Positions 12,165 to 59,256 of a DNA stretch of 64,000 nucleotides are shown here, in pieces; within the stretch, counting starts at the first letter, position 1, and each line of letters starts with the position of its first letter. The DNA is taken from contig CAVRJM010000001.1 of assembly GCA_963722075.1 (NCBI GenBank), forward strand, positions 320,001 to 384,000, in the 5' to 3' direction. This stretch comes from Candidatus Babeliales bacterium (lineage in GTDB: Bacteria > Babelota > Babeliae > Babelales > JANWKD01). A model generated the notes under the pieces. The model had not been told where the DNA came from. It searched no databases and saw nothing but the letters and a program-made list of their open reading frames with translations. The translations under genes and the position numbers were made by a program.

Positions 12165-12395
12165 ACGTCGTTACGAGCTTGTCGAAGCAATCCAGGTTCT
12201 TTAACATTTTTCAGCTCTTATGACTTTTATTATAATTGTTCAGATAATATAATCTTATTGATTTGATGAGTATAATCCTTATTTATTGTTTGATTAGAAA
12301 TTTATGTTGTGCAATCATCGTTTCTTATATGTTCGAAGATTAAGCTGATTTCATTTAATTTAGCCTGGATTGCTTCGACAAGCTCGCAACGACGT
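12165..12395. repeat. Family-1 (CGTC-type REP-like) inverted pair with 167-bp AT-rich spacer
   Basis: ACGTCGTTACGAGCTTGTCGAAGCAATCCAGG (12165-12196) and near-perfect reverse complement (12364-12395). Confidence 0.9.
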
Positions 12396-12571
12396 TTTTT
12401 TAAAAACAGACTTTTTAAGCTTTGAGCATATGCTATTCAAAAACTCAATAAATCCTAGCTATTATAAATATAATTAGGTAATAATTTTTTCTAAGCTTGT
12501 AAAAAGATATACATATAGTAATCTATATTAGATTTTATATATACAATAATTACAACGTAAGGGATTTATTT

Positions 12572-13114
12572 ATGAATAAATATACATTTTATATGTTACT
12601 ATTAACTATTTCTGGTATTGCAGGTAATTATGCTGCAGATAACATAAAAAAAACGTTATTTGAAAAACCAGTTGAAACGAACGCAAAAGAAAACGCCAAT
12701 GATAAAGAAAAAATAAATCAAGAAAAAAAATCAGAAAATGGTAAAGCGAGTGCGCATGCCTATCTTTCTTATAGCCAGGGCCATTTAAATTTTGGCGAAT
12801 TTTCTGAGGAAAGGGTTGAAGAATTTTTACAATATATGAAAAAAGATGGCAGATTAAATCCTGTAATGGCGCATTCAATTAAAGATAAAACAAAAGATAA
12901 GGATAAAAATATCGGACAAGAGTTGATATTTTTAAAAAAATTTAAAAAGGCAGTTCGCTTTCAACAAAAAGAAGAATTAAAAAAATTACGGGAAGAAATA
13001 AATAAAAAAGAAGATTCGTCCCCAATTTTAATGGCAATAGTTCTAGGTGGTGTTGCAATGGGCGCATCGGCTGTTTTGGTGGTTGGTGCGGCCTTTATTC
13101 TTTCTCGTAGATAA
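12572..13114 (+). CDS. Hypothetical protein with signal peptide and C-terminal TM
   Basis: Signal peptide, K/E-rich body, C-terminal TM ending in RR. Confidence 0.65.
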   Translation: MNKYTFYMLLLTISGIAGNYAADNIKKTLFEKPVETNAKENANDKEKINQEKKSENGKASAHAYLSYSQGHLNFGEFSEERVEEFLQYMKKDGRLNPVMAHSIKDKTKDKDKNIGQELIFLKKFKKAVRFQQKEELKKLREEINKKEDSSPILMAIVLGGVAMGASAVLVVGAAFILSRR

Positions 13115-13117
13115 ATT

Positions 13118-13702
13118 ATGATGAAAATCTTACCACGATCATTTTATGCACGTGCTACTGCAAAGGTAGCACGTGATTTACTTGGTAAGAAATTGGTGCG
13201 GGTAATTAATGATACCGTTCTGAGTGGTATTATTGTAGAAACTGAAGCATACGAAATTAATGATCCCGCATGCCACGCATTTCGCGGTAAAACGGTAGCA
13301 AATCACGCGCTCTTTGAAACGGTAGGGCACGCGTATATCTACTTTATTTATGGCAATCATTTTTGTTTTAATATTGTTTCTCGTGCCGATATCTGTAAAG
13401 CGGGTGGTGTTCTAATCCGTGCATTAGAGCCAGTTGAAGGCATCGAAATAATGCAGCAATTTCGACCTACCACCAGTATAAAAAATCTAACTAATGGCCC
13501 GGGCAAATTAGCTCAAGCGTTACATATTACTAAAGAACTGTATGGTGTTGACGTTACTCATAAAGGGCCGCTGTATATTGTTAGTGATGAATCATATACT
13601 CCATTTTCTATTATTTCGGGCGAGCGAATTGGTATTAGTAAAGGGCAAGAAGTACCCTGGCGTTTTTATATAAAAGATAATCCGTTTGTTTCGAGGCGTT
13701 AG
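13118..13702 (+). CDS. mpg: 3-methyladenine DNA glycosylase (MPG/AAG family)
   Basis: VARDLLGK, IVETEAY, YIY.IYG.H.C.N, VLIRALEP, NGPGKL, RIGIS, PWRF. Confidence 0.95.
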   Translation: MMKILPRSFYARATAKVARDLLGKKLVRVINDTVLSGIIVETEAYEINDPACHAFRGKTVANHALFETVGHAYIYFIYGNHFCFNIVSRADICKAGGVLIRALEPVEGIEIMQQFRPTTSIKNLTNGPGKLAQALHITKELYGVDVTHKGPLYIVSDESYTPFSIISGERIGISKGQEVPWRFYIKDNPFVSRR

Positions 13703-13804
13703 TAAATTTTTTTTTATTTATTTAAACTAGGTCTGTTCAGTTTTATTTGTTTAATTTCTTAATAAACGCAAGAATTTACTCTATTGATGAAAATTATTAA
13801 GAGG

Positions 13805-13884
13805 ACGTCGTTGCGAGCTTGCCGAAGCAATCCAGGTTTCTTGAAAATTTTAGCCTGGATCCCCACGCTATCGCTCGGGACGAC
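13805..13884. repeat. Family-1 repeat heterodimer with 17-bp spacer
   Basis: ACGTCGTTGCGAGCTTGCCGAAGCAATCCAGG...CCTGGATCCCCACGCTATCGCTCGGGACGAC. Confidence 0.85.
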
Positions 13885-13903
13885 AATCATAACGAAAGGG
13901 ATT

Positions 13904-14506
13904 ATGATGAAAAAATTAATTTTTATTGTTGCTTTACTAATGCAACAAGTTTGTCACCCGAATGGCATGATTACGGCAATGCAATCATTGCACGATAATT
14001 TAGTACAGCATGAAGCATTTGCTTCTTTGCAACTTTCTGAACAACATACAATGGAATTTAGCGAGCTTTTTTATAGATTGGGCGAGTTATTAGATGGGGC
14101 ATTGTACAATGAAGAGCTAAATGAAAAAGGAAAAGAATTTGTTGAGCGCTATAAAGAATTTAAGGGAACTGAGCGATTACAGTTTTCGGTAAACATTGGC
14201 CTAAGAGATATGCAAGAAGAAGATACAGTAAAAGATAACGCGCAAAAAATTTTATTAAATATTCGTGATATTCGTACATTTAGTATGCAGCTCACAGAGG
14301 AAGAACAAGTAAGATTTGCGCTCTTTTTAGATGAGGTTTTTGCAGTTGCTCAAAAGGCAATAGAGTCATTTGAAGAAATAATCAATAGTTATGATCAATC
14401 GCTTATGCAATCAATTAGATCAATATTAGCTGAACAGCAGCAAGTTTTGATGTTCTCCTTCCAAATAGATTTTCCGGATTTATCATATACATACATAATT
14501 GGTTAA
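13904..14506 (+). CDS. Hypothetical secreted protein
   Basis: AAAGGG then ATG at 13904 giving an MMKK-hydrophobic signal; upstream in-frame extension merely reads through the repeat. Confidence 0.65.
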   Translation: MMKKLIFIVALLMQQVCHPNGMITAMQSLHDNLVQHEAFASLQLSEQHTMEFSELFYRLGELLDGALYNEELNEKGKEFVERYKEFKGTERLQFSVNIGLRDMQEEDTVKDNAQKILLNIRDIRTFSMQLTEEEQVRFALFLDEVFAVAQKAIESFEEIINSYDQSLMQSIRSILAEQQQVLMFSFQIDFPDLSYTYIIG

Positions 14507-14554
14507 ATTAGAATTCTAAATTTCTCATTATAAAATTTTGACTTTATTTTATAA

Positions 14555-14631
14555 CTGGATTCTTACGACCTAAAGGTCTCAGAATGACAAATAAACTTTA
14601 ATGTCATCCTGAGCGTAGCGTAAGGATCCAG
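14555..14631. repeat. Family-1 repeat pair (divergent orientation)
   Basis: CTGGATTCTTACGACCTAAAGGTCTCAGAATGAC...GTCATCCTGAGCGTAGCGTAAGGATCCAG between convergent genes. Confidence 0.8.
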
Positions 14632-14663
14632 CTAATATGATATTTATTTCAAAATAACTAGTA

Positions 14664-16379
14664 TCAAAATTCTTGTTCCCTTTTATTCATATATAATCGA
14701 TAATGCATCAAGAAGTTTTTTGCAAGACGTTTAGCCGGTTGCGTATTGCGGGCATGTTCTAATAAAATTACCAACGTAAGAGGTTTATGGTCTTTATAAT
14801 TAAAATAAGCTACAAACCACGCATGCGGTAAGGTGAAATATGAATCACTCTTTTGCTTAGAAAGTTCTGTAACTTGAGCAGTCCCGGTTTTTGCAAACAC
14901 TGTAATATCTTCAATATGACTCACTTCTCTACCCGTACCAATACGAACTACTGATTTCATTGATTTTTGCAAAAATTTTCGCGTAGCAAATAATATATTG
15001 AGGGGTTTAATAGTCACCGGTTCATGCTCTAGAATGCGAGGCCTTACTAAATATCCTTGAAATATACTTGAAATTATACACGCAATTTGAATAGGGGTAG
15101 CTTGTAAATAACTTTGTCCAATAGAACATGATAACGTTTCGCCAGGCCACCACGGTTCGCCTTTTTCTTGCCTTTTCCAACGAGTGGTAGGAACTAATCC
15201 TTCTTGTTCGGGAAACATAATATTTAATTTTTGTCCTAACCCAAATCTAAAGGCGTAATCGGCTAAAATATCAATTGGCATTTTAGTTGCAATTTGATAA
15301 AAAAGAATATTGCATGATTTTGCTAATGCATCTTTGGTAGATAATTGACCATGACCTGAGCGGCGATCACAATAATAATATCTGCCTTTAAAGCGAAAAT
15401 AACCGGGGCAATAGAGGTGATCATGCATGCTTATAATATTATGTTCTAACGCAGCACTGGTAGTGATTAATTTAAAAATGGAAGCAGGTGGATAACATGC
15501 ATAAAATGCACGATTTAAAAAAATATTTTTTTCTTTAAGCGTATTCCATTCATTGACGGGTATAGGATCTAAAAAGATGGAGGGATCGAAATTAGGTCGA
15601 GACAGCAATGCTTTAAGTGCTCCTGATTCTGGATCCATCAAAATAAAAGCACCATTATATTCGGCAGGAAATAAGGATTCAGCTATTTGTTGTAAATTAA
15701 TATCAAGGGTCGTAATAATATTTTGTCCTGCTAGCGCAGCGGTAATTTTGTTTTCTTTAATTTTCACCCCTAATGAATTAATTGTTTTAATTAGTTTTCC
15801 TTGCTTGCCCTGCAACTGATCATGAACTATTTTTTCTAATCCCATTTTACCAATTGGTTCAAGGGTATTAAGTGAACTTAAATGTCCTAAAATATGGCTT
15901 GCCATCTTTTGATAGGGATAATACCGTTTAAAATGATTGGAAATGATAATATTGGGATTATTGGGAAAGAGTTCAATAATTTTGCTTAATTGAGAAAAAG
16001 TTACATCTGAAGCAATTATTACGGTTGAGCCATTTTTTTCTGCTTCCATTATTTTTTCTACGGGTAGTTCAAGAAGTAAAGCCAGTTGTTGCATAATAGG
16101 TGCTTGCTTTGGCGAAATTGTTTTATTTCCTGAACCTTTCCAATAAAGGGTAGTTACGGGGCGATTGGTAGCAAGTAAAATGCCATTACAATCTAAAATG
16201 TTACCGCGGGGCGGGGCGATTGGTTCATTCTTTAGAAAATTTTTCACCCCTCTTAAAAAGAATACGTCCATTTGTATGATTTGTAAGTAAAAAAGGCGAC
16301 CAATAATAATGAAGAGTGCTAGCACCACCCAGTAAATAATAATGCGTACCTTCTTATTAAAATGATAGGTAAAATCCAT
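14664..16379 (-). CDS. mrdA: Penicillin-binding protein 2 (class B transpeptidase)
   Basis: RLFYLQI, PRG.ILD, PASIFK (SxxK), SCN (SxN), KTGTAQ, HAWF. Confidence 0.9.
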   Translation of the reverse strand: MDFTYHFNKKVRIIIYWVVLALFIIIGRLFYLQIIQMDVFFLRGVKNFLKNEPIAPPRGNILDCNGILLATNRPVTTLYWKGSGNKTISPKQAPIMQQLALLLELPVEKIMEAEKNGSTVIIASDVTFSQLSKIIELFPNNPNIIISNHFKRYYPYQKMASHILGHLSSLNTLEPIGKMGLEKIVHDQLQGKQGKLIKTINSLGVKIKENKITAALAGQNIITTLDINLQQIAESLFPAEYNGAFILMDPESGALKALLSRPNFDPSIFLDPIPVNEWNTLKEKNIFLNRAFYACYPPASIFKLITTSAALEHNIISMHDHLYCPGYFRFKGRYYYCDRRSGHGQLSTKDALAKSCNILFYQIATKMPIDILADYAFRFGLGQKLNIMFPEQEGLVPTTRWKRQEKGEPWWPGETLSCSIGQSYLQATPIQIACIISSIFQGYLVRPRILEHEPVTIKPLNILFATRKFLQKSMKSVVRIGTGREVSHIEDITVFAKTGTAQVTELSKQKSDSYFTLPHAWFVAYFNYKDHKPLTLVILLEHARNTQPAKRLAKNFLMHYRLYMNKREQEF

Positions 16380-17311
16380 TAATTACCTGATCCTTTTTTT
16401 TTAAAAGTAAATTGATGAGATGGATGTGCTTGATCACACAGCGTTATTAATTCTTGCGCTGATACGTGAATATATTTCTCGGTACTTCCTAATGTTTTAT
16501 GTCCTAAAAGCTCTTGAATAGCGCGTAAATCAACCCCTTGATTTAATAAATGAGTAGCAAAGGAGTGTCTTAATTTATGAGGGCTAATTGAGCGTTCTGT
16601 TTTTAAGCATCTGCCAAACATATTTATAATTCGTTGAATTGAGCGGCTGGTGAGTGGTTCATTAGCAGTATTAACGAATAAATAATTATGGGTATCAGTA
16701 ATAGAGACGCGTTCTTTTTCTATATATTTAGTGATACTGACGTGCGCTTTAGAACCAAAAAGAACTAACCGTTCCTTATTTCCTTTTCCCTTAATTCGTA
16801 TAATTTTATTATTAAAATCAATATCGTTAATTTTTATATTTATTAATTCAGAGCAACGGACTCCCGTAGCATATAATAATTCAAAAATAGCTTTATCACG
16901 TAATGGTTTTTTGGTAGGTAAATCAGTTTCTTTTACGGCATCTAATAAATGGAAAATTTCATCAACGGTAAGATATATCGGTAACTTTTTTTCAAGACGA
17001 GGGCGAACTAGGTGTAAATTAAGCGCAATATGTTGCTTCAATAAAAATTTTTCAAAAGATTGAAAGGTAGATAATTTACGGGCAATAGAGTTTTTACTCA
17101 TTTTTTTATGATATAACGAAATTAATAAACGTTCTATTATTTGTTTAAAGGGAATTTCAGCGGATTGTTCTTTTATGATTCGCTGCCAAAAATACAAAAG
17201 TTGTGTAAGATCATTTAAATAAGCACGTAATGTATTTTCTGATAAATTTTTTTCAATTTCATTAAAAGTAATGAATTCTGCAATTTTTTCTTCAAAATCT
17301 TTTAAGGTCAT
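16379..17311 (-). CDS. xerC: Tyrosine recombinase XerC/XerD family
   Basis: LYATGVRCSE, GKGNKER, HKLRHSFATHLL, QELLGH, T..Y; alternative start at 17368. Confidence 0.9.
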   Translation of the reverse strand: MTLKDFEEKIAEFITFNEIEKNLSENTLRAYLNDLTQLLYFWQRIIKEQSAEIPFKQIIERLLISLYHKKMSKNSIARKLSTFQSFEKFLLKQHIALNLHLVRPRLEKKLPIYLTVDEIFHLLDAVKETDLPTKKPLRDKAIFELLYATGVRCSELINIKINDIDFNNKIIRIKGKGNKERLVLFGSKAHVSITKYIEKERVSITDTHNYLFVNTANEPLTSRSIQRIINMFGRCLKTERSISPHKLRHSFATHLLNQGVDLRAIQELLGHKTLGSTEKYIHVSAQELITLCDQAHPSHQFTFKKKGSGN

Positions 17312-17453
17312 AATTCTACCCCTAGATAAGCATGAATAAATATAGTTATCTATTTTATTATTTTTCATATTTAAACCTTAATTTACTAACGTATGCAAGA
17401 AAATCTGGAGGTATGCAAAAAATCTTGCTCAAATGATATAAAATTATAAATGT

Positions 17454-17686
17454 ACGTCGTTGCGAGCTTGTCGAAGCAATCCAGCATTCATTAAAATTTT
17501 ACAGCTCATTTCATAAATTTATTTATTATAATGATTCATTCATTCAATGAAAAAAAACTATTTATTAGTTTTATACGAAATAACTTTTTACTTGTTTCAA
17601 TAATTTACTGAGCTTTATTCCATTATTTTCTATAAGTTCGTATCATTTATTATAACCTGGATTGCTTCGGCAGGCTCGCAACGACG
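17454..17686. repeat. Family-1 inverted pair with ~171-bp AT-rich spacer
   Basis: ACGTCGTTGCGAGCTTGTCGAAGCAATCCAG (17454-17484) / CCTGGATTGCTTCGGCAGGCTCGCAACGACG (17656-17686). Confidence 0.9.
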
Positions 17687-17895
17687 GCTTTTCTAAATGT
17701 TTAAATTTTTAATACTTTTGAGTTAATTTTATAATGCTTAAATAAAAACTCAACAAAACCTGTAAGTTTGATTAATAAAAAATTAATTGAATGCTATTTT
17801 TCAATAAATGAATTACCTCTAAGATCTTGCCGTTATTTATGATCTTGATACATTTACTACAAATGATTGCATAATTACTACATAAATAGGATCTA

Positions 17896-18546
17896 ATGGT
17901 TTCTGATTCATTAATACAAAAGAAAAAATACGCTGCTCAGATTATTAGAATTCTTAAAAAAGCAACCAAAAATTTGCCTGAACCTATGAGTAATCTCATC
18001 AAGAAAGAGTACCATAATGATCCTTTTTTGATCTTAATTAGCTGTTTATTGAGTTTACGGGCTCGTGATACGGTAACCTATCCGGTATGTAAGGAACTCT
18101 TTAAAAAAGCCCGTACTCCGCAGCAATTTATTGATATGCCCTTACATCAATTAGAAGAAATAATACATCGCATTGGTTTCTATCGAAGGAAAGCTCATAG
18201 TATCAAAGAGGTAAGTAAAGATATTCTTAAGCGATTCAACGGCAAAGTTCCCTCTGATGAACAAGATCTTCTTTCAATTAAGGGAGTGGGAAGAAAAACG
18301 GCAAATCTGGTTCGAGGCGTTGCTTTTGATATTCCGGCGATGGTTGTTGATACGCATGTACATAAGCTTTCTAATAAATTAGGATTGGTTTCTACTAAAA
18401 CCCCTGAGCAAACTGAAAAAATGTTAATGAGTATTTTACCGCGTTCTCAATGGATTGAATATAGCAGATTATTAGTGCAATGTGGGCAACATAGCAGAAT
18501 TTGTAAATCATATATCGATTTACTTATTAAAGAAGAAAAAATTTGA
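17896..18546 (+). CDS. nth: Endonuclease III
   Basis: PF..LI..LLS, GFYR.KA, HhH motif GVGRKTAN, VDTHV; C-terminal 4Fe-4S motif not evident. Confidence 0.9.
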   Translation: MVSDSLIQKKKYAAQIIRILKKATKNLPEPMSNLIKKEYHNDPFLILISCLLSLRARDTVTYPVCKELFKKARTPQQFIDMPLHQLEEIIHRIGFYRRKAHSIKEVSKDILKRFNGKVPSDEQDLLSIKGVGRKTANLVRGVAFDIPAMVVDTHVHKLSNKLGLVSTKTPEQTEKMLMSILPRSQWIEYSRLLVQCGQHSRICKSYIDLLIKEEKI

Positions 18547-18722
18547 TCTAAGAAATATAAATTAAAACTGGAAATAGTACTAAATGTCATCGGGATGACA
18601 AGTCCTTACGAGAGTTATTTAAGCTAAAAGGATTATTCGCTCTGTTTACGTATCGCAATATTTAGCTTTTGACTGAATCGCCCAATAAGATCGATTTAAA
18701 CCAAATTTAGCTTATCAAGAAA

Positions 18723-18795
18723 TAAAGTCGATTTTAATCGACTTTATATAAAAAAAAATAGGCAATGATTGTTGCTCATTGCCCATTCTTTTTAA
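18723..18795. terminator. Two hairpins between convergent nth and the histone-like gene
   Basis: TAAAGTCGATT/AATCGACTTTA, and GGCAATGA...TCATTGCC flanked by A and T runs. Confidence 0.6.
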
Positions 18796-18836
18796 TGTGC
18801 TTAATTTCATATGTTGTTTGCGTAAAAAGCGGCCGA

Positions 18837-19148
18837 TTATGCGCGTTTAGTAGTTCTGCGTTTGTGGCTTGCTTTTTTAGCAGTAGTTCTTTTATGAGAA
18901 GCTCGTTTTGTCGTTTTGCGTTTGCTTGCTGCTGATTTACGACGCTTTGGTGTTTTTGCTCCCATGAACGCAGCTAATCCTGCTAATCCAGTTGCTTTTC
19001 TTTTATGCGTAGCTTTTTTTCTTGCAGCAGTTTTTCTTGCTGTAGTTTTTTTAGCTGCAGTTTTTCTTGCTGTGGTTTTTTTCGCTACTGCGCGTTTTGT
19101 TGTTTTCTTAGCTGTGCTTTTTTTCGCGCTTTTTCTTTTTGTTACCAT
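18837..19148 (-). CDS. Histone H1-like basic protein
   Basis: K/R/A/T-rich repeats (KKTTARKTAA), no acidic residues, AAGGAG RBS. Confidence 0.75.
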   Translation of the reverse strand: MVTKRKSAKKSTAKKTTKRAVAKKTTARKTAAKKTTARKTAARKKATHKRKATGLAGLAAFMGAKTPKRRKSAASKRKTTKRASHKRTTAKKASHKRRTTKRA

Positions 19149-19198
19149 TGCATCTCCTTATTTGAGATTAATAGTTATTTAATTAACCCTACAATTTA

Positions 19199-19228
19199 AA
19201 TGTAACGGTTATGCGCGCCATAAGTCAA
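19199..19228 (-). promoter_or_regulatory. Putative sigma70 promoter of the histone-like gene
   Basis: TTGACT-N18-TACATT on the minus strand. Confidence 0.4.
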
Positions 19229-24191: not shown

Positions 24192-24406
24192 GTCGTTGCG
24201 AGTTTACGAAGCAATCCAGGTTTTATTAAAATTTTTCAATTTAAAAATTTATTGTAGTTTATTTGTTAAGATAAATTGTTGTTTGTTGATGTGATCTTAA
24301 TTAATAAAAAAATTATTCTTTTTTGTAAAGAGTTTGCTTATATACTTCTCTTATTTTTCTTCACTTATTATTTTTAGCCTGGATTGCTTCGTAAACTCGC
24401 AACGAC
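24192..24406. repeat. Family-1 inverted pair with 157-bp AT-rich spacer
   Basis: GTCGTTGCGAGTTTACGAAGCAATCCAGG (24192-24220) and its exact reverse complement (24378-24406). Confidence 0.9.
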
Positions 24407-29104: not shown

Positions 29105-30172
29105 ATGAAAAATCTGCTGATACATCTTTCTTTGGTGGATGGCATCGGGCCTGCAGCAATCACCGCTATTATGAATTATGCTGCGGGGTATGCTGAAAGC
29201 GATGTCTATCTTTTTTCTACACATGATTTTATTAAAGCCGGATTGAGTGAAGCAGCTGCTATAAAAGTAGTAGCTGCATTACAAAATAAAGCTCTGCTAG
29301 AACAAGAATTGGAATTGGCACAGCGGCATGCTATTACGCTGGTAACTATTTTGGATGAATCATATCCCGCACTTTTAAAGCAGATTTATTTACCACCGGC
29401 GGTTTTATATAGTAAAGGAACGCTCCCAGCACATAAATCATTAGCCGTAGTTGGTTCGCGCAAAGCAAGCTCCTATGCACATCGGGCGGTCGAACTACTA
29501 TTACCACCCCTTATTGAGGCAGGTTGGATGATTACGAGTGGTGGGGCTTTGGGAGCCGATACTATTGCGCATCAATTAACGCTGCAACAAAAAGGAACCA
29601 CCGTTGCCGTTTTAGGTGCTGGCTTATTACGCTTATACCCGCGCGAAAATAAAAAGCTTTTTAATGAGATAGTGGCAACCGGCGGTGCATTAGTGAGCCC
29701 GTTTCCCCTACAATTTGAACCATTGCCGGGCAATTTTCCGGCACGCAATCGTATTATTGCAGGATTAAGTATCGGTTGCTTAGTGGTGCAAGCTGCGCAC
29801 AAAAGTGGTGCCCGTATAACTGCTCAATACGCGCTTGAGCAAGGAAAAGATGTTTTTGCTGTACCCGGCCTTCTTGATGATCCGCTGCAAGCAGGATGCC
29901 ATGAACTTATCCAACACGGTGCTAAATTGGTAACCAGCGCTGCTGATATTGCTTCAGAATTTAATGAACAAATAGCGGAAGTACCTGCACCAAGCCCAAA
30001 AATTGATACTATATCAGATCCTTTTCTAACCTTATGCAAAAGGCCTACTTCATTTGAAGAACTGCTTGTGCATACCAATCTTTCAAGCATTGCCTTGCAA
30101 GAAAAACTGTTCCATTTACAACTTGACGGTAAAATTGAACAAAATTTTGCTGGTTTGTGGCAAGCGCTTTAA
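29105..30172 (+). CDS. dprA: DNA-processing protein DprA
   Basis: AVVGSR, SGGALGAD, FPARNRIIAGLS, SGARITA, VFAVPG. Confidence 0.95.
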   Translation: MKNLLIHLSLVDGIGPAAITAIMNYAAGYAESDVYLFSTHDFIKAGLSEAAAIKVVAALQNKALLEQELELAQRHAITLVTILDESYPALLKQIYLPPAVLYSKGTLPAHKSLAVVGSRKASSYAHRAVELLLPPLIEAGWMITSGGALGADTIAHQLTLQQKGTTVAVLGAGLLRLYPRENKKLFNEIVATGGALVSPFPLQFEPLPGNFPARNRIIAGLSIGCLVVQAAHKSGARITAQYALEQGKDVFAVPGLLDDPLQAGCHELIQHGAKLVTSAADIASEFNEQIAEVPAPSPKIDTISDPFLTLCKRPTSFEELLVHTNLSSIALQEKLFHLQLDGKIEQNFAGLWQAL

Positions 30173-38466: not shown

Positions 38467-38508
38467 CGTCGTTGCGATCCAGCCTTCGCCCAAGGGGCTT
38501 CGGCGGAC
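38467..38508. repeat. Truncated family-1 arm fused to a family-2 hairpin
   Basis: CGTCGTTGCGA then TCCAGCCTTCGCCCAAGGGGCTTCGGCGGAC. Confidence 0.7.
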
Positions 38509-40016
38509 TAAAACGAAGTTCCGACCTTTGCCCATACATGGCCCATTTTAAATGATCTATTAGTGCCAGAAAATTCAATACCACCACCAAGACCAACAAA
38601 TGGTTGGCTCCAGCACCAATCCCATAAATAGCCGATATGAACAAAGAACCCATGAGAGAATGCGCCTGGATGTGCCGCAGATTCAAAATTAAGGTCACTA
38701 TTAGAAATGAATACCGGGGATGCATCAAGAATAGAAGCATTTGTACCATCAATTTGAGTTAAACTGGCTGTTGTATTGGTGCCAGCACCAGCAGTACCAC
38801 TTAATCCAGCAATACCAAAGGTATTCGCAGGAATTTGGCCAATTACATCAATATGGTCTCGCGTGCGGCCCCATAAATTGTAGCCAGCATCAAGGATGAA
38901 ATTGCAACGTAAATATTCAAGCATAAAAACAAGATCACCATGAGCTCTATTTTTAGTCTTAATTGGCAAGGTTAAAATATTCGGGCCACGAACAATTTCT
39001 CCAGCGTACGCGCCAGCATTAAATCGTTTAAATAATAGATATCTGCTGCCGATACCATTGTTTTTAAGATCAAAAGTTCGCATTTGTCTTGATTTGAGCA
39101 TGGTATAGATATTGCCATTAATGAATCCGGTTAAAAACTCATCACAACCATTTTCCCATAATAAGAAATTACCTAATATTCCTGCTCCCACCTCAAAATA
39201 ATGCCCATTACCCACAATAGGTTCAAAAAAGAAAACGCCATTTGGTCGATTGCCGGTGGGTATAATAGTGCGTACATTAACGCTAAAATAATTACATTCA
39301 TCGTTAAGAAATATACAACCTAAAGCACATTCAAAATCAGCAAAAGATGATTTTTTTCGTTTACCATCTACCCGAGCAAATTGGAGTGGTTGCTTTACAT
39401 CAAAAAAGGTTGCTTGGCCGTCCCATGCAGTTATCATAGAATTAAATGGTGCAGGGGTATCAGTAGGATTTCCTAATTCATTTGCTAGAATTGCCGTTCC
39501 AGAAGTGCTGACTGTTTCTTTAAAATCGATTGACCATTGAGTGCGTGCATAAGGAAGATGCGCGGCCAGGTAAAACGTATAACATCCAATATCAAAACCG
39601 TAGAACCCATTAATATCTATGAGTTCATTTTGTACTGAGGGGCGTGCAGTGATGCCACTATTAAAATTATCGTTTACCAAGAAATTCTGTCCAAAAATAT
39701 CAATGCCAGGGCCTGCTGCCGTTCCTGTTTGCATGGTGTCAGTATTATTAAAGAAAAGATATTTACCAATATCATGTTTATTAAATGATTTTGAATACTC
39801 GGCGGTGCTCCAGAGTACGCCATTTGAACAATCGTCATAGCCCCAGGTAATTAAGTAACCTACACCAGCACTCTCACGTGCTTTGTTTGAACCAATAGAA
39901 CGTCCATGAAAAAAGGTACGGCCAAACACATCGCGATTATCGTTAAACTGATTATCGGCAACAAGATAAATAGGAATGAAGAGAGTGACGAAAATAATGG
40001 TACGTAGATACTTCAT
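38508..40016 (-). CDS. Putative outer-membrane beta-barrel protein (paralog of 43178-44758)
   Basis: Signal peptide, amphipathic beta strands, C-terminal Phe (KVGTSF). Confidence 0.7.
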   Translation of the reverse strand: MKYLRTIIFVTLFIPIYLVADNQFNDNRDVFGRTFFHGRSIGSNKARESAGVGYLITWGYDDCSNGVLWSTAEYSKSFNKHDIGKYLFFNNTDTMQTGTAAGPGIDIFGQNFLVNDNFNSGITARPSVQNELIDINGFYGFDIGCYTFYLAAHLPYARTQWSIDFKETVSTSGTAILANELGNPTDTPAPFNSMITAWDGQATFFDVKQPLQFARVDGKRKKSSFADFECALGCIFLNDECNYFSVNVRTIIPTGNRPNGVFFFEPIVGNGHYFEVGAGILGNFLLWENGCDEFLTGFINGNIYTMLKSRQMRTFDLKNNGIGSRYLLFKRFNAGAYAGEIVRGPNILTLPIKTKNRAHGDLVFMLEYLRCNFILDAGYNLWGRTRDHIDVIGQIPANTFGIAGLSGTAGAGTNTTASLTQIDGTNASILDASPVFISNSDLNFESAAHPGAFSHGFFVHIGYLWDWCWSQPFVGLGGGIEFSGTNRSFKMGHVWAKVGTSF

Positions 40017-44918: not shown

Positions 44919-45065
44919 CTGGATTCTTAGGCTTCGCTCAGAATGACATACGACACGGTCATCCTGAGGAACTTGCGTCCGACTTCGCCATGGCTACGCC
45001 GGATTCCTCAATAGCAAAGTGCGTGTCCGGCGGAGTTTTAACGGAGACGGAACGTGAGGATACAG
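44919..45065. repeat. Family-1 pair with a family-2 dimer nested in the right arm
   Basis: CTGGATTCTTAGGCTTCGCTCAGAATGAC; GTCATCCTGAG[...44977-45051 insert...]CGTGAGGATACAG. Confidence 0.8.
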
Positions 45066-50536: not shown

Positions 50537-50543
50537 AAATAGT

Positions 50544-51243: not shown

Positions 51244-51483
51244 ATGTATTATGTCTATATATTAAATTCAGTTATTGATAAAAATCGTATGTATGTCGGT
51301 TGTACAATTGATCTAGAAAATAGACTAAACGAACACAATGCTGGTGAATGTATACATACGAACAAGTACAAGCCATGGAAATTGTGGACTTACATATATT
51401 TTGAGAATAAAGAAAAGGCAATCGCTTTTGAACGTTACTTAAAATCTGGTTCTGGTAGATCTTTTTCAAAAAGGCATTTTTAA
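51244..51483 (+). CDS. Small stand-alone GIY-YIG nuclease
   Basis: YYVYIL.S, YVG.T.DL..RL.EHN, T..Y.PW.L, A..FERYLKSG.GR. Confidence 0.92.
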   Translation: MYYVYILNSVIDKNRMYVGCTIDLENRLNEHNAGECIHTNKYKPWKLWTYIYFENKEKAIAFERYLKSGSGRSFSKRHF

Positions 51484-51485
51484 CT

Positions 51486-52974: not shown

Positions 52975-52997
52975 TAATTGCCATTAAAGGTTTTGGA

Positions 52998-53741
52998 ATG
53001 CTTATACATATTATTTCGTTAATTTGTTCCTTTTTTATTATTACGCTTTTTCCTTCATGCAAAGAAATGGAAAAATCAAAAAAACCAGGAACCATAATAT
53101 TTTTACATGGGATTTCATCGGCAGGAAAAACGTCAGTTGCAAAAAAATTACAAGATGTGTTACCAGAGTATTATAATTATGCAGATTTAGATGCATTTAC
53201 CAGTATGACACCAAAACGGCTGGTAAATTTTGATCCAAATGCACAGCCATCTGTTGAAGCGGCTGAACAAGGCATTGTTATTGAACCGATCACGTATGAT
53301 GGTCAGCAGGTAATGGTGGTAAAAACAGGTTCCTATTCGCAAAAGGGCGGTATGTTATTACCTAAATTATATAAGTTGTATGTAGAAAATGGCTTTAATT
53401 TAATTATTGAATTTGCATTTTCAGGTATTGATCAACAGTTACAAGAAAACTATTTAAAAGAATATCTCAAAGAGTTGCATTCATTTCGTGTTTATTTTAT
53501 TAATCTAACGGTTTCTCCTGAGGTCGCTTCACAACGCGAATTACAGCGTGGCGGTTTTAAAGGATTATCAGCGGGACAACGTTTATTTATGCTCAAAGAA
53601 TTTACTGAACCACAAACCTTTGATTTAGAAATTGATACATCAAATCTTACGCCTGAGCAAATTGCACAACAAATTGATGCGTTTATGCAATCTCATCCAC
53701 AGCCAGAAGCATTTAATAAATTATATAAGAAATATTTTTAA
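52998..53741 (+). CDS. Chloramphenicol phosphotransferase-like P-loop kinase
   Basis: IIFLHG.SSAGKT, RE..RG, DLEIDTS..TPE..A; hydrophobic N-terminus. Confidence 0.8.
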   Translation: MLIHIISLICSFFIITLFPSCKEMEKSKKPGTIIFLHGISSAGKTSVAKKLQDVLPEYYNYADLDAFTSMTPKRLVNFDPNAQPSVEAAEQGIVIEPITYDGQQVMVVKTGSYSQKGGMLLPKLYKLYVENGFNLIIEFAFSGIDQQLQENYLKEYLKELHSFRVYFINLTVSPEVASQRELQRGGFKGLSAGQRLFMLKEFTEPQTFDLEIDTSNLTPEQIAQQIDAFMQSHPQPEAFNKLYKKYF

Positions 53742-53767
53742 TGAATAAAAGAAGAGGTTTTTTCTTT

Positions 53768-54314
53768 ATGAATAGCACTATTCAAGTAGTTTTATTTTTT
53801 AGTTTTATAACTTTTGGGGCTACTCAAATTGTATCGATGGAAAATAAACCAGTTTCTTCTAATACACATCCTATTAACTGGGCAATTAATTTGTCATAGG
53901 ATACGATCGAACATAGTTGGGGAACTTGGAATGATTTTTTTCGTGAACAAATTAATCCATTACTAAATCGTAACCTATTTGATAAAGCCATAAAAAACGG
54001 ATCGTACCAAACAATGTCAGCCTATGAATTTTTAGCATTAAATGTTGAAAATCAACGTCTTAATAAATATAAAAATGCAAAAAATGCGCAAGAAGCATAC
54101 CCCGAAAATGACCGTCCTCGTGGAAAAAAAGATATCGATAGCGTTAATTTTTTGAGAACACGTGCCTGTGTAAGTCCGATTGTGGTTTGCAATAGTAACT
54201 GATAAAGAAGGTCTAATACATTATATTAAACTTGATGATGTTCATCGGCTAATAGCGGCAGCAATAAAAAAATCTCCCATTAAAGTCTTTTTTATTGATT
54301 TAGAAATTAAATAG
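53768..54314 (+). pseudogene. Disrupted secreted protein with a ParB/Srx-like C-terminal motif
   Basis: Signal peptide ORF with in-frame TAG at 53897, continuing in frame through the 54014 ORF, then a frameshift near 54185 into ...IKLDDVHRLIAA...IK*. Confidence 0.65.
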
Positions 54315-54371
54315 TAACTATATTTCCAATTCCATAGCCAACAGCATTTGATCAGTTATATAAGAAATATA

Positions 54372-55628
54372 TCAGTATTCAAAATTATTTATTATAGCCC
54401 ATGTATCTATGGCTTCTAAAATAAGCTTGCTTTGTTCATCATCTTTATTAACTGCTATAGATATAACTTTTTTAATGATTTCCGGATTGAGTGTTTTAGG
54501 ATTTGCATATTGTAGAAGTAGCTTTACTATTGGTAAATTATCATGATGTGCAGCCAAGCTAAAGGCAGAACTATTCAATTTATCAATTACATTAACATTT
54601 GCGCCGTGTTTTAAAAATAATTGAACAAGTTTATATATAAGTGGTGAAGGTTTATTTCTACATAATGAAATAAGTGGTGTACTTCCTGATGAATCGATTC
54701 CATTAATATTTGCACCACGTTCTAATAAAAAAAAGATTAATTTTATATATTTTTTATTTAAATTATTTACTGAATCAACCATAATAACATTTAATAAAGG
54801 ACCGTTGATAGAATAAGTGGCAACGGGGTCCTGGATTGATTCGTTAGGGCTCAGGCCAAGTTTAATAATTTTTTTTAATTTTTTATAAGCATCGTTAGCA
54901 TCGTTATTCGCAGCTTGAGGGTGATTTTTTATATTGTAATTATAAGTAAAAAAAGGAAGTAGAAGCTTAGAAATATAAGGTTTAAAAATAGCTGCTGAGG
55001 GATTTGTGAATTTTAATAATATTGTAAATAATTTTGGTTTTATTGTATATATATATGCATGTAATAAATAAAGACCATATTCTTTATTATTTAAAACAAC
55101 TAATAATTTTTGTAACTCACCTGCATTATTTTGCTTAATGGAATTATCTACATTTTTTAAGGTTTTCGCCGTATTACCTAACATATAAATAAATAATGGA
55201 TTAACGTTTATTTCTACCCAATCTTCAACTGAGCCATAAAGAACTGGCTGATATTCCCTTAGATAATTTAATGCATTATCTGTAATGAAAATGCCGTTAG
55301 ATATAGAATCAAACCGACGAGCAATTTCAATTGATAAGTGATCTAAAAAGTCACTATCTTGTAATACTACATATAAATTTGTATTAGTCATTGAAAGTCT
55401 AGATAATTCTTTAATAAATTGAATTAATTGATCTTTGGAATTAATAGTTTTTGGCAATAAATTCAAGACTATTTTATAAATAAGTTCAAAGGGTAATGTT
55501 CCTAATGAAGGTTTTTCTGGAATAGGGGCAAGTTGTATAGTTTCGACCGATTCTTCGGGTTCTTCCATTGGGATAGAAAAAGTGAAGAAAGAAATAATAA
55601 AAATACCTAGAAACAGTTTATTTTTCAT
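54372..55628 (-). CDS. Secreted F-box-like plus ankyrin repeat protein
   Basis: Signal peptide, LGTLPFELIYKI F-box-like motif, LLERGANIN..D..G.TPL and LKHGANVN ankyrins. Confidence 0.8.
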   Translation of the reverse strand: MKNKLFLGIFIISFFTFSIPMEEPEESVETIQLAPIPEKPSLGTLPFELIYKIVLNLLPKTINSKDQLIQFIKELSRLSMTNTNLYVVLQDSDFLDHLSIEIARRFDSISNGIFITDNALNYLREYQPVLYGSVEDWVEINVNPLFIYMLGNTAKTLKNVDNSIKQNNAGELQKLLVVLNNKEYGLYLLHAYIYTIKPKLFTILLKFTNPSAAIFKPYISKLLLPFFTYNYNIKNHPQAANNDANDAYKKLKKIIKLGLSPNESIQDPVATYSINGPLLNVIMVDSVNNLNKKYIKLIFFLLERGANINGIDSSGSTPLISLCRNKPSPLIYKLVQLFLKHGANVNVIDKLNSSAFSLAAHHDNLPIVKLLLQYANPKTLNPEIIKKVISIAVNKDDEQSKLILEAIDTWAIINNFEY

Positions 55629-55759
55629 GGTTTCTCCATTTTAATCAAAAATCTGTATATTCTAATTGTAATAATTTATATAGAATAAGTCAATAAATTA
55701 TGTATTTAAATCGGGACAAAGCATTTAAAATATCGAATTCAAAAGAGTTTAATAAAATG

Positions 55760-55838
55760 CTGGATTGCTTCGACAAGCTCGCAACGACGTTTTTTGCTTT
55801 CGGCTATCGTCGTCCCGAGCGAAGCGTGGGGATCCAGG
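55760..55838. repeat. Family-1 heterodimer (divergent orientation)
   Basis: CTGGATTGCTTCGACAAGCTCGCAACGACG...CGTCGTCCCGAGCGAAGCGTGGGGATCCAGG. Confidence 0.88.
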
Positions 55839-55915
55839 CCAAATTAATATGATTTAATTTTTTTAGCTTAAATACTTATCATTTGATGCGTTTGTGCTGA
55901 TAGTAATGACCTCTA

Positions 55916-56842
55916 TTATAATTCTAATGCCATCTTGATAATGGCATGATCAGAAAAATGCTTAATATGTTTAATATCCTGATTAACATGTCTGAGTAAA
56001 TTATTGGGATTTTCAGGGGAATAAATCAGATTTTTTACCGTGAACTGCTTACTATAAAAAATAAAATCATTAAGATTAAATCCTTGTTGCGCGCCGGTTG
56101 AGGTTGGTACTAATGGAAGCATATCAGCATTGCTTTTCATTTCATGCACATAGTGCTGTAACTTATTATATTTTTTTTTATTTAACTTATCAGTGCCTTG
56201 CAATACGGAGTAATTAAAATCTCCGCATATAATCCATGGTAGATTTTTTGGCGCGCGATCAATTGTATCTTTAATAATAGAAAAATGATCTGCATGATCC
56301 TCATTGAGCATAAAAGGTATATGCGTATTGATAATGCCTATTGCTTTCTTTTTTTTAGTTTGCAAATGCGCAACCATCATTTTTTTATTAGGAGTAAACA
56401 CCATAAATTCGTAGGAAAGAATAGTAAATTTATGCTTATTAATGAGTGTGAGTACGCCGTCTTTTTGTGCAATGCTATCAATAATATAATAATAATCATT
56501 GGGTGAATATGCATCTAATAAGGTGTTATTAAACCTCTTATATTGTACTTCTCTATTATTATTAAAATAATCGTATTTAGTTTCCTTATGGCCATTTACC
56601 ATAACAACTTCTTGTTCAAATTGTTTACGTAATTCCCCTGGGTTATAGGGCCATTCTTGAAAACAAAGGATATCACACCCATTAAGGATATGGCCCGGTC
56701 GTAATGCTTGTTTAAAAAGAGAACATCTTTTTTTAATAGCAATGGGATACTGATCTACATATTGAATGTAATAAGGCTCATAAAGCACATTACAAGTGGC
56801 AGCGGTTATGGTTGAGGCTGATGATCGTTTCATATGGATCAT
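55916..56842 (-). CDS. Endonuclease/exonuclease/phosphatase (EEP) family protein
   Basis: TCNVL, DILCFQE, NTH, CGDFN, DFIFY, SDH. Confidence 0.88.
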   Translation of the reverse strand: MIHMKRSSASTITAATCNVLYEPYYIQYVDQYPIAIKKRCSLFKQALRPGHILNGCDILCFQEWPYNPGELRKQFEQEVVMVNGHKETKYDYFNNNREVQYKRFNNTLLDAYSPNDYYYIIDSIAQKDGVLTLINKHKFTILSYEFMVFTPNKKMMVAHLQTKKKKAIGIINTHIPFMLNEDHADHFSIIKDTIDRAPKNLPWIICGDFNYSVLQGTDKLNKKKYNKLQHYVHEMKSNADMLPLVPTSTGAQQGFNLNDFIFYSKQFTVKNLIYSPENPNNLLRHVNQDIKHIKHFSDHAIIKMALEL

Positions 56843-56906
56843 TTCTTAAATAATTGTTATTATTATATCATATAAAGATTTATAAAACTTTTTCTATATT
56901 TTTATT

Positions 56907-57524
56907 ATGAATAATATTCTTTTATTGGCATCTCAATCATATTCGCGTCGTCAATTACTCAGTCAAGCAGCTATCCCTTTTGTATTGTTAGAACAATCAG
57001 CTGATGAAAATGCCTGCGATTGGAATATGCCACTTACTCAGTTAGTTACTTCAATCGCTAAGCATAAAATGGAACAGGTTATTTTACCGCGTCACACAGA
57101 TAGTAAACCGATTTTTGTGTTGACGGCTGATACCTTAACGCAAGATCTATCAGGAACGATTTTGGGTAAACCAACATCGCGATCCCATGCACTTGAAATG
57201 CTACGCGCAGTGCGCGCAGGGGCTCGTATTGCTACGGCATTTTGCTTAGATAAAAAAATTTATCGCTTTGATACCTGGCAGACCCAAGAACGAATTATAA
57301 TGGTAGTAGAATCGAGTTGTATATTTAATGTGCCTGAGCAATGGCTTGAACAATATCTTTATCATGTACCCGCATTAAGTTGTTCTGCAGCCATGTATAT
57401 TGAAGGGTATGGGGCGCAATTTTTAAAATCCGTAACGGGTTCTTATAGTACCATTATTGGTTTACCTATATGTGAGGTGCGGCAAGCCTTAGAAAAAATG
57501 GGATTTTTTAGCGAGAGTATTTAA
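56907..57524 (+). CDS. maf: Maf family nucleoside triphosphate pyrophosphatase (copy 2)
   Basis: LLASQS..RR.LL, DE, ADT, LGKP, GSYSTIIGLP. Confidence 0.88.
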   Translation: MNNILLLASQSYSRRQLLSQAAIPFVLLEQSADENACDWNMPLTQLVTSIAKHKMEQVILPRHTDSKPIFVLTADTLTQDLSGTILGKPTSRSHALEMLRAVRAGARIATAFCLDKKIYRFDTWQTQERIIMVVESSCIFNVPEQWLEQYLYHVPALSCSAAMYIEGYGAQFLKSVTGSYSTIIGLPICEVRQALEKMGFFSESI

Positions 57525-57932
57525 TAGACTGCTTATGGATTGAGAGTTATAGCAAATTAATGTACAGCAAAATCCCAACGTTAAAAAAGCGCTATTATTA
57601 AATAAATGTTTTTTGGCTTGCAAAAATGGTTTAATTTTTGCTGCTTCATGTTGCTGCCTAAGTGATTCATTACCTTCTTCTATTAATTTATTTTCTTCTT
57701 TTATATCTGCTTGTTGTTGTTTACTTCCTTGTAATGGTTTTAAGCTTGAAAGTATGAGTGGCTTATTTTTATCAGCAGCCTCTTTATAAATTGTATACGA
57801 TATAATAGTTCTATAAAGTTGAATAGCCGTTAAGCCAGCGCACAACGTGGTGCCTATGGTAGAAAACGTCAACGGCACTTCAGAATACATGGTATTGTAA
57901 AATATGAACAGTATAATTAAGCACTTTTTCAT
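57489..57932 (-). CDS. Hypothetical membrane protein
   Basis: Signal peptide and two hydrophobic segments; start overlaps stop of the upstream EEP gene. Confidence 0.6.
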   Translation of the reverse strand: MKKCLIILFIFYNTMYSEVPLTFSTIGTTLCAGLTAIQLYRTIISYTIYKEAADKNKPLILSSLKPLQGSKQQQADIKEENKLIEEGNESLRQQHEAAKIKPFLQAKKHLFNNSAFLTLGFCCTLICYNSQSISSLLNTLAKKSHFF

Positions 57933-59002
57933 AGCTGAAATTCTATTCGTATCACTGCATGATCCGAAAAATAATCATTTTCATTAGGATCTTGATTTTC
58001 ATGATGAATTAATTGACCAGCAGTTGGAAATAATGACGCATTAAGCACTTTCATCGTGTTGCTAAAAAATACATAATCGTCATGCTCTGGATAATTATGA
58101 GCGCCCCATGCCGTTGCAGGGAGATAATATCCGCTTTTTTCCTGTTGTCCCAGTAATAAAACCACATTGTTAAAATGAGGAAAGCGGTTTGCTAACTGGT
58201 TAAAAAGTGTTTGATCTAAATAATAATGATATTGAAGATCTAAAATATCATAATTAAAATCTCCACAGACAATCCAATAAGTAACGCTACTATTATCAGC
58301 GATTATCTTCTTAATAGTATTTAAGCCATGTAAATTTGCTTGTGCATTATACGGTAGATGTGCATTTATAACTCCCATAGTATGCGGATGATTTTTTGGT
58401 TGTATAATAGTAACCAAGATTCTTTTTGATATATCAAGCGTAATGGTTTGTGATGATAATAATTGAAATTTATTTTTATTTATTACGGTAAGTACCGTGT
58501 CATACGGGGCTAAGTTATCATAAATATATTCGTATGCCTGAGTAGGATATGCATCAGCAAGATCTTCAATAAATTTTAAATAAGAGGCATTGATAGAATT
58601 AAAATAATTATTCTTAGTTATAGCTTGCTTATTAATATAAATAACATCATTCTTATTTTGGCGTAATTCACCTACACCGTATGGCCATTCTTGAAAACAA
58701 AGAATATCAACGTTTTGCAAAGCATGATTATTTTGTAAACTTTTTCTAAAGGCGGCACGGCGATTTTGTATATCTATTAATACATTATTTTTTTTTAGAT
58801 ATTGAACGTAAAATGGTTCGTACAACATGTTGCAGGTAGTGAGCGTAAACTTAAATGGGATTGTTGCGAGCGTGGTAAGGGGCGTGCTGAGAGCGGTGTG
58901 TAATTGTTGTAATGAAGTTCGTAAGTGATTTAATTCAGTTTCTAAGGCCCCCAGATAATTGAATAGAAATAAGTGGACGAGCAGTAAAAAGTTTTTATTC
59001 AT
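57929..59002 (-). CDS. Secreted EEP family protein (paralog of 55916-56842)
   Basis: Signal peptide, TCNML, DILCFQEWPY, NAH, CGDFN, SDH. Confidence 0.88.
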   Translation of the reverse strand: MNKNFLLLVHLFLFNYLGALETELNHLRTSLQQLHTALSTPLTTLATIPFKFTLTTCNMLYEPFYVQYLKKNNVLIDIQNRRAAFRKSLQNNHALQNVDILCFQEWPYGVGELRQNKNDVIYINKQAITKNNYFNSINASYLKFIEDLADAYPTQAYEYIYDNLAPYDTVLTVINKNKFQLLSSQTITLDISKRILVTIIQPKNHPHTMGVINAHLPYNAQANLHGLNTIKKIIADNSSVTYWIVCGDFNYDILDLQYHYYLDQTLFNQLANRFPHFNNVVLLLGQQEKSGYYLPATAWGAHNYPEHDDYVFFSNTMKVLNASLFPTAGQLIHHENQDPNENDYFSDHAVIRIEFQL

Positions 59003-59065
59003 TATTTTTTCCTTTTTTTACTTAAAATACCGAAGTATAACCTTGAAAGCAATATTTCTGCACTT

Positions 59066-59256
59066 GTCATTCCGAGCGCGTCCGACCTCGCCACGGGGCT
59101 CCGCCGGATTCCGTCAATGATAGTGTGCCTGTCCGGCGAAGTTGTTTACACCGCCATAGCTTTTAGCGACGGCCGGATTAACGTAGATGGATGGGAATCC
59201 ATTAATAAGATTTTTCATTTATAAATGGATCACCACGGCTAACGCCTCGTGATGAC
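59066..59256. repeat. Three-level nested repeat (family-1 containing family-2 containing family-2)
   Basis: GTCATTCCGAGCGC[GTCCGACC...[CCGCCATAGCTTTTAGCGACGGCCGGA]...GATGGA]TGGGAATCCA ... TGGATCACCACGGCTAACGCCTCGTGATGAC. Confidence 0.8.

Follow-up and report, generated by a model that had tools for sequence, protein, structure and literature searches.

The DNA analysed here, a 64,000-nt stretch of a Candidatus Babeliales bacterium (the window; C1:320001-384000 of a 1.47-Mb genome of about 35% GC, assembly GCA_963722075.1), carries a family of small tagged hairpins, hereafter arms, that recurs throughout the genome. The available data make it probable that these arms represent a looped form of the CGTC-tagged repetitive extragenic palindromes (REPs) and Ssn-related motifs (SRMs), and that a GIY-YIG nuclease of the Ssn family, its gene flanked by two arms, binds and cuts them as single-stranded DNA (ssDNA). 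Specifically, each arm consists of a YGTC tag, a 5-bp stem, GA opposite GWR, a G-C-closed inner hairpin, the returning stem strand and a CCA tail.

Looped arms and their stems

The original prediction, made from the window's sequence alone, had proposed a scan of the whole genome. A strict pattern, which takes arms ending in TCC or TCT, finds 216 arms, 196 of them with Watson-Crick stems, while three first-order Markov resamplings give 2, 0 and 2, without a paired stem among them. If a single deviation is allowed, the count is 253, against 1 in the reversed genome, and a relaxed scan that tolerates deviations gives 282 against 4. Of the 253 arms, 145 have T and 100 have C immediately before GTC, which makes 245 with a CGTC or TGTC head, while the full TCCA ending is found in 209 genome matches, compared with the 216 strict arms that end in TCC or TCT. 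Inner hairpins range from 2-nt loops to inserts of more than 100 nt, and at least 11 Watson-Crick stem types coexist.

Contig C1 holds 146 loci, 90 of which have two or more arms. Pairs are more often tail-to-tail (55) than head-to-head (44), and in 43 of the latter the two stems differ. By crude open reading frame (ORF) calls, on which all gene-context and orientation counts are based, 20 of 250 arms fall inside ORFs, many of them at doubtful 5' extensions, and the family is mostly intergenic. An in-frame head-to-head pair lies inside a penicillin-binding-protein-like ORF (G000:C1:1047902-1049608) and a single in-frame arm inside an aldolase-like ORF (C1:1046564-1047517, L128), both named by eye; these in-frame arms in G000 ORFs recall Rickettsia palindromic elements.

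The window itself contains 16 arms at eight two-arm loci, as well as one half-arm. The original prediction had counted about 16 arms at nine loci; each position it gave carries an arm with the stem it named, and the ninth locus is the truncated half-arm at 38468. The strict pattern finds 13 arms, 12 with Watson-Crick stems (the exception is 12167, TTAC/GCAA), and the relaxed scan finds 15, the sixteenth being the interrupted arm 59066-59201 with about 110 nt inserted. Three arms fit loosely (44920, 44958 and 59066), in line with the degenerate and interrupted copies described before. Five loci are tail-to-tail (12167/12366, 13807/13856, 17456/17658, 24192/24380 and 59066/59226) and three head-to-head (14556/14603, 44920/44958 and 55761/55809). 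Remnants of an IS5-type terminal repeat border the loci at 12167/12366, 13807 and 17658.

12089..12104, plus strand: left shell of the 12167/12393 pair, a degenerate terminal inverted repeat of IS5 type (4 differences from the 18-nt word)
12167..12194, plus strand: arm, stem TTAC/GCAA, one mismatch
12366..12393, minus strand: arm, stem TTGC/GCAA, tail-to-tail with 12167, spacer 171 nt
12440..12457, minus strand: right shell of the 12167/12393 pair, a degenerate terminal inverted repeat of IS5 type (3 differences)
13728..13744, plus strand: degenerate terminal inverted repeat of IS5 type, upstream of arm 13807, flank homologous to other flanks of miniature inverted-repeat transposable elements (MITEs)
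13807..13834, plus strand: arm, stem TTGC/GCAA
13856..13884, minus strand: arm, stem TCCC/GGGA, tail-to-tail with 13807, spacer 21 nt
14556..14588, minus strand: arm, stem TTCT/AGAA
14603..14630, plus strand: arm, stem TCCT/AGGA, GTA triloop, head-to-head with 14556, spacer 14 nt
17413..17762, no strand assigned: MITE-like body around the 17456/17658 pair, one terminal repeat kept at 17745-17762
17456..17483, plus strand: arm, stem TTGC/GCAA
17658..17685, minus strand: arm, stem TTGC/GCAA, tail-to-tail with 17456, spacer 174 nt
24192..24218, plus strand: arm, stem TTGC/GCAA
24380..24406, minus strand: arm, stem TTGC/GCAA, tail-to-tail with 24192, spacer 161 nt
38468..38510 (end approximate), plus strand: truncated 5' half-arm continuing into a second hairpin family
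44920..44947, minus strand: arm, stem TTCT/AGAA, CGWR replaced by CCTA
44958..45064, plus strand: arm, stem TCCT/AGGA, 84-nt second-family insert in the loop, end TACA, head-to-head with 44920
55761..55788, minus strand: arm, stem TTGC/GCAA
55809..55836, plus strand: arm, stem TCCC/GGGA, GAA triloop, head-to-head with 55761, spacer 20 nt
59066..59201, plus strand: arm, stem TTCC/GGAA, second-family interruption of about 110 nt, without CGWR
59226..59256, minus strand: arm, stem TCAC/GTGA, tail-to-tail with 59066

The listed ORF 13784-14506 has a TTG start upstream of the 13807/13856 arms. Its likelier start is an ATG near 13907 that precedes a signal-peptide-like stretch, which would make these two arms intergenic.

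Stem pairing was assessed with the tags held fixed and pairing not demanded, since fixed-tag counts handle the variable inner hairpin better. Among 215 arms, stem positions 2, 3 and 4 are Watson-Crick in 213, 209 and 202, values reached by none of 2000 permutations; among the 27 distinct stem pairs, the same positions are paired in 25, 21 and 17, which permutations reached 0, 0 and 44 times in 2000. In this genome, no covariation was found at stem position 1 (T:A) or at the preceding R:T pair (A:T or G.T), and in arms from other phyla the position-1 T:A is swapped for C:G in 11 of 97. The earlier claim of compensatory stem changes thus stands for positions 2 to 4, with position 1 and the preceding pair fixed here. 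In a pair-count on 26 arms, 96.7% of the cells are paired, compared with 14-64% in slid controls, and double changes number 22, the mean after shuffling being 4.9; this set is biased in that every arm has a 5-nt inner segment and 8 genome arms were picked for differing stems, and it leaves out two window duplicates and L061. About ten amplified subfamilies account for nearly all copies, and it is on these, not on 200 independent events, that the covariation signal rests. From the pairing we infer selection on the stem, and hairpin-templated repair could also give paired changes.

The predicted nuclease gene between arms

The genome has eight GIY-YIG matches (Pfam PF01541). Three are genes between two inward-facing TTGC arms, all outside the window.

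C1:1398408-1398695: ssn-like gene, intact, 96 aa, Y7/Y18/E64 kept, about 1 Mb from the window
C1:140112-140399: ssn-like gene, open, second Tyr lost
C1:1361604: ssn-like gene with frameshift and stop

The SsnA query was the N. gonorrhoeae orthologue, not the N. meningitidis protein. At its own locus, this 94-aa protein is flanked by seven NTS copies, and the contexts of its residues Y6, Y17 and E64 agree with the SsnA primers given in PMC11893778. In tblastn, it matches the present genome at E 4.9e-25, 3e-24 and 1e-17, and only the three cassettes fall below 1e-10, the value to Neisseria SsnA by which PMC11893778 describes the family. The three genes are 49-51% identical to the Neisseria protein, the intact 96-aa product 50%. 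Moreover, the bases whose mutation blocks binding and cutting in PMC11893778 (G26 and C49) correspond to invariant tag positions in the 26-arm alignment. A protein tree of 90 columns, poorly resolved, was built from 94 of 103 homologues plus two outgroup rows after frames with stops or short matches were dropped; the two full-length copies group together (95), apart from tRNA-linked GIY-YIGs, and its arm labels are too strict, marking TCTC-ending arms as 'none'. A sequence search for solved Ssn structures returned solely a distant UPF0213 protein (E 0.005), and NCBIfam holds no protein-specific model for the ssn-like product.

As judged from sequence, the partner of the arms is likely an Ssn-family GIY-YIG, not a REP-associated tyrosine transposase (RAYT), and the neighbour-gene comparison proposed in the original prediction points the same way, with GIY-YIG genes between inward arms in three cassettes and no arms at the Y1 gene. 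In our assessment there is next to no probability that the arms, like GTAG REPs, are recognised and mobilised by a RAYT- or TnpA-like HUH/Y1 tyrosine transposase. Hairpins with an unpaired tetranucleotide tag are a known substrate of such enzymes, and the genome does encode one Y1_Tnp gene (C1:156495). This sole match lies outside the window, which agrees with the earlier observation that the window has no HUH/RAYT transposase, and no arm occurs within roughly 260-300 nt on either side, the nearest strict arm being 4.7 kb off. In addition, CGTC REPs are reported without a dedicated transposase, and the gene found between arms is a GIY-YIG.

The association extends well beyond this genome. At 103 Ssn homologue loci (80 from a species collection and 23 from this genome and its relatives), an inward looped arm at most 250 nt away is present on at least one side in 60 and on both sides in 31, whereas inward motifs are recovered at 6 with the SRM pattern as published. 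Looped arms adjoin the gene in Pseudomonadota, Nitrospinota, Bacteroidota, Cyanobacteriota, Planctomycetota and others. Within a comparison of 41 genomes of this order, which are kin and not independent, seven have at least six arms and six of these also have the gene; six have the gene without a looped arm, four of them with perfect-stem hairpins flanking it; and 28 have neither gene nor repeat family. One relative, G006, carries 12 looped arms (C1:108804-117045, C6 and C9), all on a single strand in tandem runs 135-250 nt apart.

All three ssn cassettes of this genome have TTGC arms only, and two of the three genes are decayed. Together with the small number of amplified subfamilies, this is what could be expected if a few founders, later amplified, had acquired their paired changes through template switching or hairpin-templated repair rather than through selection by a protein, with the Ssn link old and most stems no longer substrates. 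Such an origin is nevertheless very improbable: the unpaired tags and the GA/GWR loop stay constant while paired bases change, which repair alone would not give, and in relatives ssn genes are flanked by other stems, namely TCCT (L093), TTCT (L112), and TTAC and TTCC (L110).

A second clade of 79-87-aa GIY-YIG genes, which gives no match to the Neisseria SsnA query, comprises window 51244-51483 (plus strand), L003, L004 and L008. Three of the four follow a tRNA gene (Gln, Gly, Glu) at a distance of about 100-200 nt, and two are broken. The second hairpin family (YTTCGYY-loop-RGCTWYGS; 50 genome copies against 1 in the reversed genome) occurs in the window at 8339, 38484, 44983, 51053 and about 59080, with copies downstream of tRNA genes and as inserts within family-1 arm loops (44958 and 59066), and its hairpins precede the 51244-51483 copy and L003. 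This clade and the second hairpin family may form a parallel nuclease-repeat pair. Elsewhere in the window, 15-nt tandem repeats at 19015-19143 lie in a small minus-strand ORF (18837-19148) and encode a Lys/Ala-rich, histone-like stretch.

Fold, strand and spread

The inner hairpins bear on the molecule in which the arm folds. Loop statistics cover the 236 arms whose inner segment is no longer than 30 nt, or 151 distinct arms, and their counts are inflated by shared descent. GCGN(N)AGC words occur on the tag strand of 49 of the 151 distinct arms, compared with 3 on the opposite strand. Triloops are GNA in 20 of 37 hairpins, against one TNC, with each of the four GNA loops represented; of 25 tetraloops, 16 are GNNA, and only 6 of these are GNRA. 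Mini-hairpins of the GNA/GNNA type melt at 76.5 C as DNA and at 39 C as RNA, according to PMC13037366. Single arms show no bias of transcription orientation (16 sense, 18 antisense) and none of replication strand (32 leading, 24 lagging, p 0.35). Because DNA-stable loops sit on one strand and a transcription-orientation bias is absent, the arm fold more likely acts as ssDNA than as RNA. The ssDNA or RNA fold with fixed, protein-read tags of the original prediction fits these data, with ssDNA favoured and with selection as an interpretation rather than an observation.

If the arms were instead maintained as hairpins in the transcripts of intergenic regions, serving in termination, stabilisation or processing, the covariation would reflect selection on RNA. 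The mostly intergenic positions would suit this, as would a mild excess in convergent-gene spacers (32 of 146 arm loci against 75 of 553 background spacers) and a deficit in divergent ones (29 of 146 against 175 of 553); RNA roles are argued on such grounds in the text of Di Nocera et al. (PMC3733652). We regard an RNA role as very unlikely, since single arms run equally with and against transcription, the loops are GNA or GNYA rather than GNRA, Rfam matches in the window are three tRNAs only, the orthologous spacers of relatives lack arms, and SsnA is described as not binding RNA (PMC11893778).

Some arm copies, in turn, likely travelled as cargo of IS5-family MITEs, because about 8% of arms lie inside IS5-type terminal repeats. 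The terminal repeat TAGGYTCTGTTGAGT has 18 matches in the genome against 2 in the reversed genome, 13 of them with an arm on their inner side, and the word occurs within 200 nt upstream of 21 of 253 arms compared with 26 of 3000 random 200-mers. Three complete terminal-repeat pairs surround arms (244, 397 and 409 bp); two of these copies have TA at both ends, which may belong to the repeat itself. The body at 17413-17762 is 86% identical over 352 nt to C1:149749-150096, 187 kb apart, including flanks beyond both arms, and this second copy retains both terminal repeats. Relatives carry terminal-repeat elements with hairpins as well (161 bp in G001; 287 and 307 bp, with perfect stems, in G015). 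In metagenomes, the repeats bound at least 19 distinct elements among 75 loci examined, at least 12 of them with a transposase, and the transposase-bearing elements measure about 860 bp; two transposases were tested and match NF033580 at E about 1e-76, the others being alike by eye. At 78 terminal-repeat loci on viral contigs, no transposase-bearing element was found. G001 has three intact relatives of the transposase (53%).

Could every copy then be passive MITE cargo, with the nuclease a mere passenger that plays no role in spread? The complete pairs in this genome, G001 and G015, the flank-inclusive identity of the 17413-17762 body with its distant copy, and a degenerate terminal repeat 95 nt upstream of the intact ssn cassette are compatible with such a scenario. 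It is nonetheless unlikely: the terminal-repeat word accompanies only the 21 arms given above and homologous flanks only 18 of 253, none of the 19 metagenome elements contains an arm among the matches listed, the arm-gene-arm layout recurs across phyla, and the IS5-type transposase of those ends was not found in this genome, where the terminal repeat forms the element end at 0 of 12 DDE transposase matches checked. Seven equal-scoring DDE transposase copies (G000:C1:143790, 243000, 291983, 864290, 1133704, 1260424 and 1412734) of about 1.15 kb, whose ends are ACAGGACTTACGCA in both copies checked, suggest a recent insertion sequence expansion unrelated to the arms. A 686-bp element at L266:229-914 has IS5-type terminal repeats and, by eye, a small GIY-YIG-like ORF instead of a transposase.

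The data are thus compatible with a model in which the tag strand, when single-stranded during replication, recombination or DNA uptake, would fold into a hairpin with a 5-bp basal stem, a GA/GWR internal loop (probably sheared G-A pairs, for which the tandem sheared pairs of the PyGAPu type offer a template) and, at its apex, a mini-hairpin that is stable as DNA. The YGTC and CCA tags, left unpaired, would be what the nuclease recognises, and, as with Neisseria SsnA, cleavage would fall immediately 5' of the arm. Subsequently, cuts by Ssn followed by repair may have driven successive waves in which arms and arm-ssn-arm cassettes multiplied, with a different past Ssn paralogue probably behind each stem subfamily; that TCCT, TTCT and TTCC stems flank ssn in relatives and not here fits successive waves with different paralogues. 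Some tail-to-tail pairs would later have been copied as IS5-family MITE cargo, the transposase having since gone from the genome. For arms outside MITE shells we infer Ssn-driven spread, and the family is likely mostly selfish. A bolder proposal, which we put forward tentatively and would sooner doubt than accept, holds that this Ssn subgroup reads the looped hairpin by its shape and unpaired tags, one enzyme serving at least 11 stems, and is the missing CGTC-REP mobiliser that cuts and seeds the hairpin together with the gene that encodes it, IS5-type MITEs serving as an additional vehicle. Given that the genome has matches to comEC and to dprA, the latter near window position 29321, a side effect of the Neisseria type on the integration of incoming DNA is possible by analogy. 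Among DNA-uptake genes, the window carries a type II/IV secretion ATPase and dprA at 9917-11095 and 29105-30172, and comEC lies elsewhere.

Several observations weigh against this model. An RNA role would likewise give the convergent-gene excess. Nearest-neighbour DNA folding of the commonest TTGC arms did not return the full fold (-1.6 to -3 kcal/mol), so the sheared G-A pairs are an assumption. By the pattern used, 43 of the 103 homologue loci lack an inward looped arm (31 have an outward one), and in G006, which is 95% complete, no ssn gene was found with the query used. The published SRM pattern misses looped arms, and the SsnA substrates in the oligo table of PMC11893778 all have uninterrupted stems; in the Discussion of that paper, mobilising activity of Ssn is a hypothesis, with none demonstrated there. 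Gene-less tail-to-tail spacers are not ssn remnants, and some are homologous to one another; their candidacy as decayed ssn genes was rejected, as tblastn finds only the three cassettes and a weak match (E 0.008). Finally, for most copies neither an empty allele nor a target duplication turned up in relatives' spacers or contig sets. Counting for the model instead, the syntenic stretches of three relatives (G001, G003 and G004) contain no arm; between matched blocks, the xerC-nth gap of this genome measures 567 nt where that of G001 has 112, and 587 nt where that of G003 has 99. Insertion points in the orthologous spacers are not placeable, as these are too diverged. Four low-depth contig sets yielded no joint skipping an arm or MITE, which at that depth is uninformative either way.

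Relation to known systems

The original prediction likened the arms to CGTC-type REPs and Rickettsia palindromic elements, and this resemblance is borne out. As in the CGTC-1 to -4 REPs described in PMC3733652, which include Neisseria dRS3 and Rickettsia RPE-4 and RPE-6, the arms have a CGTC/TGTC head, a CCA tail and AT first stem pairs, dimers are mostly heterodimers, and copies are occasionally in frame. Unlike those REPs, which by the text have 8-9-bp stems, 4-5-nt loops and rare tail-to-tail dimers, the arms have an interrupted 5-bp stem and more tail-to-tail than head-to-head pairs; this difference is drawn from the text description, and the looped type may be among the published variants.

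Closer still is the Ssn system of Neisseria meningitidis. As described for SsnA, NTS and SRM in PMC11893778, there is a 5' YGTC tag, a basal stem beginning AT or GT with C directly 3' of it, hundreds of mostly intergenic copies, and a single-domain 94-96-aa GIY-YIG gene between two arms with catalytic Tyr/Tyr/Glu, which the intact copy here retains. The arms depart from NTS/SRM in that the stem is broken after 5 bp by the GA/GWR loop and ends in a variable mini-hairpin. Specifically, the SRM pattern HGTCWYN(0-2)YYVSBRHN(0-5)WNVSBRGN(0-2)RNCYNB has two matches in the genome and none at the 216 strict arms, and NTS has none, while the same code gives 7 matches at the Neisseria locus. Because CGTC-REP class features are present and the literal SRM pattern and CGTC-1 to -4 stem are not, the looped arms are filed, on sequence grounds, as a structural variant of the published CGTC-tagged REP / Ssn-related motif class. 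Since the SRM pattern misses this common subtype, counts of Ssn-repeat pairs are likely too low.

GTAG REPs and REPINs are small tagged hairpins that form inverted pairs around a dedicated RAYT gene and gene-less pairs genome-wide. The arms share the inverted pairs around a dedicated gene and the dispersed gene-less pairs; they differ in the tag and in having a GIY-YIG enzyme instead of HUH/Y1, and Ssn is not known to have transposase activity. With the IS5 family (NCBIfam NF033580, transpos_IS5_3), some arm pairs have in common the terminal repeat TAGGYTCTGTTGAGTTTT that also bounds the elements of about 860 bp; unlike IS5-family MITEs overall, only about 8% of arms are involved and no such transposase is left in the genome. 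A word search of the main text of PMC11893778 gives no mention of such MITE shells.

Most of the novelty is removed because the repeat class (PMC3733652) and its nuclease (PMC11893778) are already published, and what stands of the earlier claim is a structural variant that the SRM pattern misses. A literature search by a 12-nt arm word gave no match, a titles-level search on palindromic repeats, MITE/IS5/REP and GIY-YIG found no description of the looped subtype, and the literature from 2023 on the SsnA ssDNA GIY-YIG nuclease consisted of PMC11893778 only. As such, the findings do not constitute the discovery of a new system; they add a looped subtype, which the published SRM pattern misses, to a kind already described. 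One intact enzyme and 11 natural stem variants in a single genome offer a ready test of shape against sequence reading, a question relevant both to programmable ssDNA cutters and to what spreads CGTC REPs. In Neisseria, SsnA is reported to become inactive once the stem sequence is changed, even with pairing kept (PMC11893778); there the nuclease depends on stem sequence, whereas here the stems vary freely.

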